Source of the DNA: Eledone cirrhosa
Lineage: Eukaryota
Reading direction: 5' to 3'
Length of the DNA stretch: 64,000 nucleotides
Assembly: GCA_964016885.1 (NCBI GenBank)
Contig: OZ024762.1
Coordinates: 4,774,001-4,838,000 of the forward strand
The position numbers and the translations under genes are program-made. Under the pieces are notes generated by a model. The model saw only the letters and a program-made list of their open reading frames with translations, made no database searches and was not told the DNA's origin. Positions 19,441-61,790 of this stretch are shown here, in pieces. Within the stretch, counting starts at the first letter, position 1; every line of letters begins with the position of its first letter.

Positions 19441-19478
19441 TGACGTCTTAATGACGTCATACTTTTACAATGACATCA
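19441..19478. promoter_or_regulatory. CRE cluster upstream of PDE copy 1 (TGACGTCT, TGACGTCA, TGACATCA)
   Basis: Perfect TGACGTCA at 19452-19459, with near-sites at 19441 and 19471, about 560 bp upstream of the ATG. Confidence 0.55.
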
Positions 19479-20013
19479 CGAATGAGGCCTTTTCTTTCTT
19501 ATTTATTCATCTTATCCTATCTGTCCGACTATCTATCTATCTATCACCCTTACTCCCTCGATCTACCATCCCTCTTCTCTCTCTTATATATATATATATA
19601 TATATATTATATATATCACCGTTACTCTCTCTAACTCCTCTCACTATTTGCCTATCTATCTATCAACCCCCCTCTATCATACACACACATTATTCATATA
19701 TTTTTAATCTAATATTCTCTTCCACACTGTCGCATCATTCTAGCAGCGGCGTATTTAATCTCAAACGTAAAAATCGTTTGCTTCTTTCTACACCTGAACA
19801 TTTCCCTCGTTTAGACATCCTTTACGGGAAAACTACAGCTTAAAATAACAAGAGCTTTACGAAGCTTAAGCTTAGCTACCTTAAAAACAATCCATCCGGT
19901 GAGGTATGAGAATAAAAGAATAAGAATACGAATACAAATACAAATAAGAATAAGAATACGATATTGGACGAGAACTGAGCGTTGCTGTTTGTCATTAATT
20001 CCGTTATCAAAGC

Positions 20014-23000
20014 ATGGATAAGAAAGCCATAACCGCGGAAATGGTTGAGAAATATTTGAACAATCACCCCACTTTCATCGATGAGTGGTTGAATAGGAAC
20101 AAAATGAGAAGTGACCTTGATGAAAAATACACGAAGAAGACGCTGAGATTTTCAAGCTATGTGGAAAAGATTATGGTGAAACAGAAGAGGGAGAAACGTC
20201 AACTGATTAGCTCTCTGGTGTCGGAAAATGAACTTTTCAGTGAGCTAGTCAAAGACATTACACATGAAATCAATACCAACGCCCTCAGTCACAAAATCTT
20301 GCAGAACATCATTAAATTAACTCACTGCGAACGAGGAAGTTTGTTCTTCATTGAAAAACTAGGAAAAGAGAAATTTTTAGTTTCGAATCTGTTCGACGTC
20401 ACCCCCACCTCAGTAATGTTCGAAACTTTGCGTGAGAAAGAAAATGTTATCCGAATACCTTATGGTAAAGGAATCGTTGGCTACGTGGCCGAAACTAAAT
20501 TAAAAGTTAATATAAGGGATGCTTACCAAGACCCCCGTTTCAACAAAGAGATTGATGAAATGACTGGCTGTCGAACAAAGTGTTTAATTTGTATGCCGAT
20601 TCTAAATTACTGCGATGATGTTATAGGGGTCGCGCAAATCATTAATAAACTTGACGGAGACTATTTCACAGAAAATGACGAAAAGACCTTCGTTGATTAT
20701 TTGTATTTTTGTGGGATTAGTTTGAATAATGCCCAGTTGTTCGAAAAATCAGTCGAAGAATACAAACGAAACCAACAGTTACTGAATTTGGTAGGGGACA
20801 TATGTGCTGAGTACTCTAACTTTATGAGTCTCATTGAAGTTATATTGAGTCGAGCAACAGAAATTCTTGATTGCAGCTATGTTTGTCTTGGTCTTTTAAC
20901 TCCTTCCAAGATGGACGACACCACAGAAAAGGAATTAAATCTTTACGAAATGAAGAATGATGCTCTACAAACAAATACCACACACCCAATCTATAGGAAA
21001 GTGGCCATGGATTTTTTACTAAATGACAAACGTCTGCATATGTATGATATCAAGAATGACAGTTTATTTGAAGGTGGTGATTCTGCGATTCTTAAAAGTA
21101 ACTGTATTGGTGCAATTGCTTTGTTAGACACATCTGAAGAAAAAAATGGTTGCATATTTTTCACAAAGGAGTCAACAGATTTTTTTAACGAGTCTAATTT
21201 TACAACTATGGAGACATTTGGGTTATTCTGTGGCCTGGGAATTCATAACTGTCAAATCTGCTGGTCGACAATTAGGTGTTTAGCACAGCAGCAAATATCA
21301 CACGAAATTTTGTCGTTTCATACAACGGCTGATGAACGAGAAGTGGAGAGGTTTCTGTCGATGGAAAAACGATCTGCCTCTGACTATGGTATATATACAT
21401 TTGCCTTCAATGACCTTTATTATTCCGATGATACAACAGTTATTATCGCGGCACTCATTTTTATTGAAATGAATGCTTTACAGATTTTGGATATTGAGCT
21501 TCCTTTGCTTTACAAGTGGATACTTACAGTGAAGAAGAACTATCGCCCGGTCATCTATCACAACTGGCGACACGGCGTCAACGTGACTCAAAGCTTTTTC
21601 TGTATGCTGACCACTGGAGGTATGAACAAATACTTTTCTAATTTTGAAATGATTGTTGTCCTTATCGCATGTCTTTGCCATGACCTCGACCATAGAGGCA
21701 CTAACAATGACTACGAAGTGAAAACTGCGTCTAAATTAGCCACAATATACAGTTCTTCCACTCTTGAACATCACCATTTTGACCACTGCATAATGATATT
21801 AAACAATGAAAAAACAAACATATTCCAAAACACAGTAGTGCACAATTACAAAATAGCAGTCCATCTTATAGAAAAAGCTATTCTTTCAACAGATCTCACG
21901 CGCTATTTCCAGAATAGGACAGCATTCCAAGAACTCCTTGATAGAAAAGAAACTTTCGAGGAACAGGAAAAGCGCGATCTATTGTTAGCAATGATGATAA
22001 CGGGCGCTGATTTAGCGGCCGTTACAAAACCATGGAATACTCAAAAGAGAACAGCTTTACTAGTGACAGCGGAGTTTTTTGAGTTGGGAGATTTACAGAA
22101 GAATGTGTTAAAGTCGGAAGTTATAGCAATGTTCGACCGTGAAAAGAGGACCGATGTACCAAAATTACAAGTTGGTTTCATTCAGTTTGTATGCATACCA
22201 GTGTTTGAATCTTTACAGACGGTAAACAAAAACTTAATGCCGCTCTATGTGGGTTGTTTGAATAATCTGAAACACTGGGAAGATATAGTTGGCGGTAAAG
22301 AAGAATTTGATATCGATGTCGAGCTTAACAAGACATTAGCTGGGTTTTGGGATTCCGATGAGCCAGAAAGTGCTCGCCAAAGGACTGAGGAACAAAACGT
22401 ATCTCCCTCGCAAGAAGATAAGGATATATCGAAACGAATATCAGGGGGATATATAAAAGGGTATGAACGATTTATTGATTCAGGAAACTCGCCCAAATCT
22501 TTCGGAAGTTTAGATCTTGAACAACCTGGCTATTCTAATTCGGCCATTGCGAACGCGTCGACGTCAAAAATGCTCTCGGCGGCGGCGACGTTGGATGATA
22601 CCAAATATATGATATTCACATCAGATGAAGCAGGGGAGAGAGAATTGGATGAAATCGATGTTGATATTGAAGTAGAAGAGATACGTAGACTGAGAGGAAA
22701 TAAGGTGAACATAAAACAGATAACAGGTGGGCAGGAGATTATGAGAGAATTAACGTATATACAACTCAGTGATCCAATTCCTAGGCGTAAAGAGTCACTG
22801 AGGTCTTATTTAGACGAAATAGAAGAAGAGAGAAAGCATGCCCTGGAGAAGAAGAAAACCAACACGGAGTCGGTTAGTGAAAAAGAAGTGCCCCCAAAAA
22901 TCATTAGACCCTCATACACGGTGATCCCTTCTTATCAAAGATCAAACAAGGATACTTTTTCGACGAACTGTCCATCGAATGATTTATACCAAGAAACTAG

Positions 23001-23142
23001 ATCGGTAGATTCCGCGATTCGTCAAGTGGATCATTCGAAGTGTATAAAAATGTTCAGAGAAAGTAAAAGATGTATGCTAAAGGCTGACATTGATCCTGCC
23101 ACCGATAAGATAGAGAAAAGTGTTATGTGTCTTATTATATAA
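20014..23142 (+). CDS. GAF-domain cyclic-nucleotide phosphodiesterase (PDE5/6/11-like), single-exon, 1042 aa, C-terminal CaaX (CLII); copy 1
   Basis: GAF-A motifs SNLFDV, KGIVGYVAE, DAYQDPRF and QIINK..FTENDE. Catalytic motifs YHNWRH, HDLDHRGTNN, LEHHH, ADLAAVTKPW and LQVGFI. Confidence 0.95.
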   Translation: MDKKAITAEMVEKYLNNHPTFIDEWLNRNKMRSDLDEKYTKKTLRFSSYVEKIMVKQKREKRQLISSLVSENELFSELVKDITHEINTNALSHKILQNIIKLTHCERGSLFFIEKLGKEKFLVSNLFDVTPTSVMFETLREKENVIRIPYGKGIVGYVAETKLKVNIRDAYQDPRFNKEIDEMTGCRTKCLICMPILNYCDDVIGVAQIINKLDGDYFTENDEKTFVDYLYFCGISLNNAQLFEKSVEEYKRNQQLLNLVGDICAEYSNFMSLIEVILSRATEILDCSYVCLGLLTPSKMDDTTEKELNLYEMKNDALQTNTTHPIYRKVAMDFLLNDKRLHMYDIKNDSLFEGGDSAILKSNCIGAIALLDTSEEKNGCIFFTKESTDFFNESNFTTMETFGLFCGLGIHNCQICWSTIRCLAQQQISHEILSFHTTADEREVERFLSMEKRSASDYGIYTFAFNDLYYSDDTTVIIAALIFIEMNALQILDIELPLLYKWILTVKKNYRPVIYHNWRHGVNVTQSFFCMLTTGGMNKYFSNFEMIVVLIACLCHDLDHRGTNNDYEVKTASKLATIYSSSTLEHHHFDHCIMILNNEKTNIFQNTVVHNYKIAVHLIEKAILSTDLTRYFQNRTAFQELLDRKETFEEQEKRDLLLAMMITGADLAAVTKPWNTQKRTALLVTAEFFELGDLQKNVLKSEVIAMFDREKRTDVPKLQVGFIQFVCIPVFESLQTVNKNLMPLYVGCLNNLKHWEDIVGGKEEFDIDVELNKTLAGFWDSDEPESARQRTEEQNVSPSQEDKDISKRISGGYIKGYERFIDSGNSPKSFGSLDLEQPGYSNSAIANASTSKMLSAAATLDDTKYMIFTSDEAGERELDEIDVDIEVEEIRRLRGNKVNIKQITGGQEIMRELTYIQLSDPIPRRKESLRSYLDEIEEERKHALEKKKTNTESVSEKEVPPKIIRPSYTVIPSYQRSNKDTFSTNCPSNDLYQETRSVDSAIRQVDHSKCIKMFRESKRCMLKADIDPATDKIEKSVMCLII

Positions 23143-60560: not shown

Positions 60561-60899
60561 TTAAAATACCTTTTAATCCGTTTTATGTATATGATGTTTT
60601 AAGTGAGGTAAGTTGCAAGCAACAGTGCTGTGTCAACGGAAACATTAATAGTAACTGTGACGGGGTCATTGCTATAAATAACAACTAATTCTGAAATGCC
60701 ATTAATGTTAGTACCAGTAATGCACTGAGTAATTGCTGGCCTTGGGCCTAAAGTAGAAACAATTAATGTTAACAGACAGCCACCCTTATGTGCTATGTTG
60801 ACGATGAAACAAAACAAACTAAACTCATGACAAGCGCCAGCCATGTTACCTCTACAGACGACCGCACCGAGAGAGAGAGAGTGAGAGAAAGGCACACAA

Positions 60900-61311
60900 A
60901 CAGACGCGCACACATATACACATACATACATGCATACATACATGCATACATGCATACATACATGCATACATACATGCATACATGCATACATACATGCATA
61001 CATACATGCATACATGCATACATACATGCATACATGCATACATGCATGCATACATGCATACATACATGCATACATGCATACATGCATACATACATGCATA
61101 CATGCATACATACATGCATACATGCATACATACATGCATACATGCATACATGCATACATACATACATACATACATACATACATACATGAATACATGCATA
61201 CATACATGCATACATGCATACATGCATACATACATACATGCATACATGCATACATACATACATACATACATACATACATACATACATACATACATACATA
61301 CATACATACAT
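60900..61311. repeat. (TACA)/(TGCA) tetranucleotide microsatellite
   Basis: Direct reading. Confidence 0.95.
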
Positions 61312-61760
61312 GATGGCTGCCCCCTCGTTATCGAGTATGGCCATTGCACGAAATAACATTATTAATAATTATTAATTAATGCTATCCTGTAATGCCTGTG
61401 CGTGAAGATTCTTTTTAAAGTGAGGAAAGACTGTGCACTGAGCCAATCCCACTCTCTGAGCGACAGTAACCATAACCCGATCAACATCATCGGTGAGTAC
61501 TGAGCCGCAGGTTTTATGTCGGAGTTATCCCAGTTTCCTGAGTTACCTTCTCCTAGAACAATGCCCTGACAAAGGCTAGGGGTCCTTCACATACATACAC
61601 ACATACACACATACATACATAGGGGTGCAACTGAGATATGCCGCCTAAAAGGAGGGTGTAGAGTCTAACTTTCCCTTCCCTCTTCCCAACTTTCTTTCTT
61701 TCTCTTTTCCTGTTTATCATGTAAACTATTTATGTAAATATAATTTATTTCATTAATTAC

Positions 61761-61790
61761 TGCAATGTCAAAGTTTGAATGACGTCACAA
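61761..61790 (+). promoter_or_regulatory. Paired CRE module upstream of PDE copy 4
   Basis: TGCAATGTCA-AAGTTTGAA-TGACGTCACAA. Perfect CRE at 61780-61787, about 310 bp upstream of the ATG. Confidence 0.6.

Follow-up and report, generated by a model that had tools for sequence, protein, structure and literature searches.

One important question raised by this locus is whether a short motif that recurs in front of four related phosphodiesterase (PDE) genes is a promoter element held by selection, and in which cells it might act. The window, i.e. the whole stretch of 64,000 nucleotides analysed, is octopod DNA and contains four intronless genes of the PDE5/6 type. Copy 1 (20014..23142, + strand) is a single unbroken ORF of 1042 amino acids with GAF and PDEase_I domains and a CaaX-like C-terminus (CLII), and its protein shows 73% identity to one from O. 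bimaculoides. Copy 2 (35528..40498, - strand), an unbroken ORF with 19 in-frame 99-nt repeats, is arranged head-to-head with copy 3 (48598..51690, + strand), whose unbroken ORF encodes 1030 amino acids and has an in-frame ATG also at 48565. Copy 4 (62091..64000, + strand) is open at the window end, with 636 codons visible. The ORFs are genuine: Pfam GAF and PDEase_I domains were found in copies 1-3, and copy 4 aligns with these. None of the four translations searched (copies 1 and 2 and the two starts of copy 3) had an exact database match. In the octopus and cephalopod literature no paper or title about the PDE cluster or the motif was found, and this cluster of old intron-free PDE copies seems to be without earlier description.

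When copy 3 was used as query against the PDB, the closest solved relatives were PDE5 (E 7e-117) and PDE6 (2e-101). With Pfam domains in copies 1-3 and this PDB search with copy 3 alone as the basis of the class, the enzymes resemble cGMP-specific PDEs, and cGMP-specific hydrolysis is predicted. The PDE5/PDE6 family includes the sea urchin 'sperm phosphodiesterase 5' and, in the available part of PMC7024835, insect Pde6, and the GAF and class I catalytic domains are common to all of them. The octopod copies also share intact metal-binding motifs and CaaX-like ends with this family; they differ from it in being intronless in their coding region, clustered and fast-evolving, and in their long divergent tails. 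Copy 2 departs further, with His at the position of the conserved purine-binding Gln, which is kept in copies 1 and 3 (the check covers copies 1-3, the position in copy 4 falling past the window edge). No cephalopod-named protein was present among the best 120 of 1,261 listed matches to chiton PDE5/6, which allows, without showing it, the loss of a conserved parent gene.

The perfect CRE octamer TGACGTCA occurs three times in the 64,000 nt, at 19452, 40651 and 61780, always upstream of a PDE start codon and 152-554 bp away from it. A scan of the window thereby confirmed these positions, and a variant near 48306, as given in an earlier note on this DNA, which had placed them 150-560 bp before the start codons. 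Copies 1 (19452..19459), 2 and 4 have the perfect site, and the CRE of copy 3 carries one mismatch (TAACGTCA); the gaps to the ATG in copies 1-4 are 554, 152, 284 and 303 nt. One-mismatch CREs were also located at 19441..19448 in the copy 1 cluster (TGACGTCT) and at 40682..40689 (- strand; TGACGACA), directly upstream of the copy 2 module described below. Comparison of the TGACGTCA count with expectation, as the note had proposed, gave a shuffle mean of 0.66, and 3 of 100 shuffles attained three sites; the count of perfect CREs is by itself just mildly over chance. The four upstream regions hold eight of the 15 near-CRE octamers of unique non-coding DNA (p about 2e-6). An unrelated 8-mer, CTACTTCC, likewise had 3/3 of its occurrences there, and such a placement was found for 2 of 21,254 8-mers.

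The strong evidence is a two-part module rather than the octamer count. The pattern ATGTCA-N9-TRACGTCA, previously described for copies 2-4, was confirmed at 40651-40673 (-), 48291-48313 (+) and 61765-61787 (+), its only three occurrences, and a TTG at spacer positions 5-7 can now be added, giving the fuller layout ATGTCA-N4-TTG-N2-TRACGTCA. When spacers of 5-15 nt were allowed, four pairs were obtained in the 64 kb, one per gene; the fourth, in front of copy 1, is inverted, with a spacer of 11 nt and its second site, TGATGTCA, at 19471..19478 (- strand). The copy 2 module, ATGTCA-N4-TTG-N2-TGACGTCA, spans 40642..40679 (- strand; CRE at 40651-40658), that of copy 3, TGATGTCA-N4-TTG-N2-TAACGTCA, 48289..48313 (+), and that of copy 4 61759..61796 (+; CRE at 61780-61787). 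Copies 2 and 4 are identical at 31 of 38 nt of the module. The term 'paired CRE' holds for the CRE in front of each copy and fails for its partner: the second site differs from the CRE octamer at 1, 2, 1 and 3 positions in copies 1-4, never contains the CpG, and has ATGTCA as its sole invariant part (TGTCA in 4/4 modules). A tandem of full CREs was hence rejected.

Although the pattern was defined after the fact, none of 100 shuffles matched ATGTCA-N9-TRACGTCA. The module was the only gapped hexamer pair common to three of the four upstream 600-mers; when four non-coding windows were drawn at random 2,000 times, a single draw contained any such common pair. In leave-one-out matrices the omitted copy ranked first outside the training set in all three trials, with scores of 25.7 vs 10.7, 19.9 vs 14.2 and 24.7 vs 13.1 bits. 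The copy 2/4 block alignment scored 41, above 200/200 shuffles and 946/946 unrelated window pairs. Against the promoter reading stand the distance of 554 nt between CRE and ATG in copy 1 and the alignments of whole upstream regions: that of copy 1 matched none of the others above background (scores 19-23 against a null mean of 21), those of copies 3 and 4 failed to align (score 21), and those of copies 2 and 3 reached a marginal 29 that arises from a different stretch. The sequence statistics of the module back the earlier proposal of a putative conserved CREB/ATF-type promoter element before each paralog.

Copies 2 and 4 differ at 55 of 77 fourfold sites (71%), so that their silent sites are close to saturation. 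Binned by 20 nt, the two copies match at 15 and 13 of 20 positions in the module bins and at 2-8 of 20 in the bins flanking it. In trees that were quick searches with long branches, copy 1, copy 4 and the pair 2/3 each join separate Octopus relatives, and the copies with the N9 form make up the 2/3/4 clade (SH-aLRT 94 and 91). The common layout is thus traced to inheritance from a single promoter and not to separate recruitment. The module is best read as the footprint of a single ancestral promoter element that would have been duplicated and selectively kept, as opposed to four independent gains, and, judged among paralogs, it is very probably constrained regulatory DNA. Paralogous promoter footprints in tandem clusters keep a short motif while flanks and silent sites saturate; the octopod module belongs to this class with no difference in principle. 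The element type is textbook, and the surprise moderate.

We consider it somewhat more probable than the opposite that the paralogs inherited the module as a proximal-promoter element by which they are switched on, most likely in male germ cells. Repeated duplication within octopods would have multiplied an intron-free PDE5/6-type ancestor bearing a CRE and an adjacent ATGTCA; the flanks would have decayed and filled with repeats, selection holding a module of 25-38 bp. From motif identity, the CRE is likely to be bound by a CREB/ATF-family bZIP dimer, and ATGTCA, at its fixed spacing, may be bound by a further protein, either a bZIP as well or a homeodomain protein of the TALE/TGIF type. Indirect expression data and analogy suggest that both would activate the paralogs in a single cell type, with male germ cells as the best candidate, yielding membrane-anchored cGMP phosphodiesterases for sperm.

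To our knowledge CREM as such is a vertebrate paralogue, absent from molluscs, and the expected factor is therefore a mollusc CREB/ATF protein. In mouse male germ cells, the accessible parts of PMC3091680 and PMC4498915 describe CREB/CREM binding to CREs of promoters which, like those studied here, carry the palindrome TGACGTCA, as well as half sites or sites with one mismatch, near genes with a proposed germ-cell use. The octopod case differs in its mollusc host and in a second site at fixed spacing, and is known from sequence alone. In O. sinensis gonads, a gene named 'cGMP-specific PDE-like' had an FPKM of 13.93 in testis against 0 in ovary; of 28 cyclic-nucleotide PDE genes, 14 were testis-up DEGs, where 2.55 would be expected (PMC11202624). 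The proposed germ-cell programme gains this indirect indication of testis from PDE genes that are unmapped to the cluster, and we lean slightly towards the male germ line as the main site of paralog expression.

The same constrained CRE promoter could instead mediate signal-induced cAMP/PKA-CREB transcription in somatic cells such as neurons, with feedback on or cross-talk to cyclic-nucleotide levels as its role. Full CREs are the classic targets of phosphorylated CREB in the part of PMC3091680 available, the sequence constraint fits equally, and the gonad study, which contrasts testis with ovary only, leaves room for somatic expression. However, direct cAMP feedback, as previously suggested, fits poorly with PDE5 and PDE6, which are cGMP-specific, as the nearest solved relatives, and the sole expression evidence found indicates testis. 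In spermatids CREM acts via ACT without phosphorylation, according to PMC3091680 and PMC4498915, and the presence of a CRE does not by itself imply regulation by cAMP. We regard somatic cAMP induction as unlikely.

Less probable still, and doubtful, is that the module is read by a factor outside the CREB/ATF family or is a general octopod core-promoter element, uninformative on co-regulation. The conserved part does exceed the octamer (ATGTCA, TTG, fixed spacing), copy 3 has TAACGTCA, and CREs are common across promoters of many gene classes; yet the perfect palindrome is kept in 3/4 copies and the near-CRE enrichment upstream points to CRE readers. As for the second site, in the available part of PMC7197356 the Achi/Vis (TGIF) motif of Drosophila spermatocyte promoters is TGTCA, the core invariant in all four octopod copies, and the fly code, as far as described there, has no CRE, unlike the octopod module. 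CNAAATT of that code was found in 0/4 copies between module and ATG. The second site may be a candidate TALE/TGIF site. TGIF as testis partner found no support, as TGIF2-like is up in ovary and not in testis of O. sinensis (PMC11202624).

A functionless module surviving through recent duplication or gene conversion is very improbable. Sequence exchange between copies 2 and 3 does occur: the coding core of copy 3 (48712..50914, +) is 95% identical over 2,203 nt to 36397-38599 of copy 2 (inverted), so that the strong divergence noted earlier for copies 2 and 4 does not extend to this core. We infer, however, a gene-conversion tract that ends inside the coding region without reaching the promoters; divergence of copies 2 and 3 is limited to tails and flanks, and the tails point to an old duplication. 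Their orthology is mixed: judged by the tails, P0030 is the partner of copy 2 and P0125 that of copy 3, and six informative columns in residues 600-745 give the reverse pairing. The near-saturated silent sites of copies 2 and 4 and the identity peak at the module bins also stand against passive homology. In 4/4 copies no base of the module falls within a tandem or dispersed repeat, and repeat origin, named earlier as a refutation, was rejected within the 64-kb window. A SINE-like fragment stops at 40695, just beyond the copy 2 module.

It is harder still to credit that the element lies within a 5'UTR intron, as a splicing signal (TRAC branch point) or intronic enhancer, with the promoter far upstream. 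TGAC/TAAC variation is compatible with the branch-point consensus, and TT(C/T)CAG occurs about 40-46 nt 3' of the module in copies 2 and 4. A point against the proximal-promoter reading is that in copy 3 the stretch from the module to the start codon contains 11 ATGs, so that this copy would require either a start site near the ATG or a 5'UTR intron. A branch point, however, would leave the second half of the palindrome and ATGTCA unconserved, the pair is inverted in copy 1, and no divergent neighbour or host gene was apparent at the copy 1 CRE among ORFs inspected by eye in 1.9-19.4 kb. TATA, Inr and splice-site patterns showed no common arrangement at the four copies. A CpG-island signal was inconsistent (observed/expected 0.70, 1.12, 1.03 and 0.39 around the four sites), and structured RNA was rejected (0 Rfam matches). 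Coincidence selected after the fact, which three CREs in 3/100 shuffles and one non-CRE 8-mer also 3/3 upstream would favour, is the least credible account, already largely refuted by the pattern-blind pair test (1/2,000), the leave-one-out trials (3/3) and the alignment nulls (0/946).

An extended form of the promoter-element reading, which we hold to be improbable, is that a fixed-spacing CREB plus TALE/TGIF composite would be an octopod male germ-cell code, captured by a retroposed PDE5/6 gene that replaced its intron-bearing parent and radiated for sperm signalling; if true, it would unite the solution of mammals (CREM) with that of flies (Achi/Vis). Very little has been charted of cephalopod promoters, and the 25-bp module is a concrete, testable octopod promoter element that can be used as a query to find further co-expressed genes. 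Should it drive expression in testis, it would provide a compact promoter for the germ line and a means to test whether sperm genes are under CREB-family control in molluscs too. The cluster suggests diversified cGMP signalling in octopod sperm.

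The cAMP response element (CRE) octamer, TGACGTCA, was counted three times in the window, as the earlier note had reported, against a mean of 0.66 in shuffled sequence (at least three in 3 of 100 shuffles). Each perfect CRE lies 5' of a different gene of the PDE cluster, which consists of four long uninterrupted ORFs: copy 1 (20014-23142, + strand), copy 2 (40498-35528, - strand), copy 3 (48598-51690, + strand) and copy 4 (62091 to the window end, + strand). The positions previously assigned to the CREs (19452, 40651 and 61780, with a variant at 48306 in copy 3) were all correct, and the distances to the ATG are 554, 152, 284 and 303 nt in copies 1-4, respectively. 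Within unique non-coding DNA, the chance of finding three CREs in three different upstream 600-mers is ~1e-4. However, among the 21,254 8-mers present, one other, CTACTTCC, likewise has its three occurrences upstream, and hence the octamer by itself is suggestive but does not settle the matter. Eight of the 15 near-CRE octamers (one mismatch at most) in unique non-coding DNA fall within the four upstream regions (p ~2e-6); the third near-CRE of copy 1 is at 19441.

Every hexamer pair with gaps of 3-15 nt was searched in the four upstream regions by a pattern-blind procedure. ATGTCA-N11-ACGTCA was the sole pair common to at least three of the four regions. Among 2,000 random sets of four non-coding windows with repeats masked, only 1 had any common pair; masking was not applied to the real regions, but the module itself is within unmasked sequence. 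In each of the three leave-one-out trials, matrices built from two copies gave the omitted copy the top rank outside the training set. A spacer TTG is also common to copies 2-4, extending the pattern to ATGTCA-N4-TTG-N2-TRACGTCA. When the spacer may be 5-15 nt long, the window contains the pair four times, the fourth being that of copy 1, inverted and with a spacer of 11, for which a chance probability of ~0.008 was estimated from 48 ATGTCA sites. As for origin from a common repeat, which the earlier note had considered, the modules are located outside the tandem and dispersed repeats of the window; no Rfam family matching them was found. Judged on the DNA sequence, we consider the module, unlike the octamer alone, decisive evidence.

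Paralogous promoters are not independent, and therefore neutral divergence is the proper control. Of 77 fourfold sites, 55 differ between copies 2 and 4 (dS ~2), and every comparison with copy 1 is saturated. Between copies 2 and 4, 31 of the 38 bp of the module are identical, above all 200 shuffles and all 946 unrelated window pairs, and only 2-8 positions match in the adjoining 20-nt bins. Whole-region alignment of the other five pairs gave no such signal (scores 16-29, against a null with a mean of 21 and a maximum of 37). Comparison of the paralogs shows a module retained against a saturated background, and we take it to be a real, constrained, CRE-centred module in a predicted promoter position.

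The earlier note had described the sites as paired CREs. This holds for the downstream site, a canonical CRE, but not for the upstream one, which lacks a CpG in every copy and has 1, 2, 1 and 3 mismatches to the CRE in copies 1-4, ATGTCA alone being invariant. Candidates for the upstream site are a weak bZIP site and a TALE homeodomain site. TGTCA, the motif of Achi/Vis in Drosophila spermatocyte promoters according to an excerpt of PMC7197356, is the core shared with this site. Two observations speak against the TALE reading: none of the four copies has CNAAATT, and TGIF2-like is higher in ovary in O. sinensis (available part of PMC11202624).

A 17-nt stretch is common to copies 2 and 3, at 40547 (-) and 48530 (+), respectively; its upstream ATG is out of frame and starts a uORF that runs across the start codon (24 codons in copy 2, 56 in copy 3). 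The stretch is possibly involved in translational control or, in copy 3, marks the end of a 5'UTR intron (48464-48546). An abundant, partly tandem, SINE-like dispersed repeat of ~190 nt (e.g. 934-1165, 17597-18087 and 41054-41933) and minisatellites of 31, 55 and 76 nt in the gene flanks were also observed in this AT-rich, repeat-laden animal DNA.

GAF and class I phosphodiesterase domains were identified in copies 1-3 (Pfam), with which copy 4 is alignable. Octopus proteins were the best named matches of copies 1 (73% identity) and 3 (57% over the core), and copy 4 matched the O. bimaculoides protein P0130 (61%). These identities indicate an octopod source at some distance from the three Octopus species in the database. 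The closest solved structures to copy 3 were PDE5, then PDE6. Coding CpG observed/expected is 0.92-1.02, which we take to be a weak fit to unmethylated, tissue-restricted invertebrate genes. CaaX-like C-termini (CLII, CSIS, CTIS) are preserved in copies 1-3 and Octopus relatives, though the tails are unalignable, and suggest prenylation, as in PDE6. P0130 and P0131, Octopus relatives of copy 4, have HDLEH versus HDLDH in copy 4 and the others. At the conserved purine-binding Gln, the catalytic domain of copy 2 (35528-40498, -) has His (EMHVGF) and O. vulgaris P0125 has Glu, so each species has one pair member without this Gln, with possibly changed specificity or activity. The N-terminus of copy 2 (38509-40400) contains 19 in-frame 99-nt repeats, Ser/Thr-rich 33-residue units that add ~620 aa; copy 3 has ~1 unit.

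Two quick trees placed copy 1, copy 4 and the 2/3 pair each with separate Octopus relatives and joined copies 2/3/4 in a clade (SH-aLRT 94 and 91), so that the N9 form of the module maps to this clade and the inverted N11 form to the branch that diverged earliest. The relatives P0305 and P0319 fell within the octopod clade and P0306 and P0044 branched near it, so the family includes additional divergent members. The cluster seems to be shared with O. vulgaris and O. bimaculoides, with three relatives apiece apparently on one contig. The paralogs are intronless and of old duplication, and the lack of introns in their coding regions suggests a founder gene that arose by retroposition. Its intron-bearing parent was possibly lost, since the best 120 of 1,261 matches to a chiton PDE5/6 (8,000 candidates scored) included none with a cephalopod name. 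The head-to-head copies 2 and 3 combine a coding core of 2,203 nucleotides at 95% identity (36397-38599 and 48712-50914) with tails that barely align. The best O. vulgaris match differs between the two tails (154 vs 106 and 155 vs 97 in score), which score 70 against each other; we infer that the duplication is old and that the core has been homogenised. In the catalytic domain, some columns give the opposite pairing to the O. vulgaris proteins, and the O. vulgaris pair has a similar pattern (core 77%). Repeated gene conversion, perhaps with a tail-swapping inversion, may have produced it.

CRE promoters and paralog footprints are of already known kinds; we found neither this cluster nor the module described in the literature outside subscription journals and bioRxiv supplements. 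The sole expression evidence found, in part 1 of 54 of the supplement of PMC11202624 and its searched rows, compares gonads only: in O. sinensis a gene named 'cGMP-specific PDE-like' has FPKM 13.93 in testis and 0 in ovary, and testis DEGs make up 14 of 28 cyclic-nucleotide PDE genes (2.55 expected). This gene is linked to the O. sinensis cluster relatives by its name. The module would sit at the promoter, where a CREB/ATF protein would bind the CRE and a second factor the upstream site at fixed spacing. In mouse spermatids CREM works via ACT without phosphorylation (excerpts of PMC3091680 and PMC4498915), so a CRE need not mean cAMP feedback. The cGMP signal of sea urchin sperm flagella is ended by PDE5 (excerpt of PMC7024835), of the same family as the octopod copies. 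From the gonad comparison and by analogy, these copies would be expressed in male germ cells and may serve sperm cGMP signalling.
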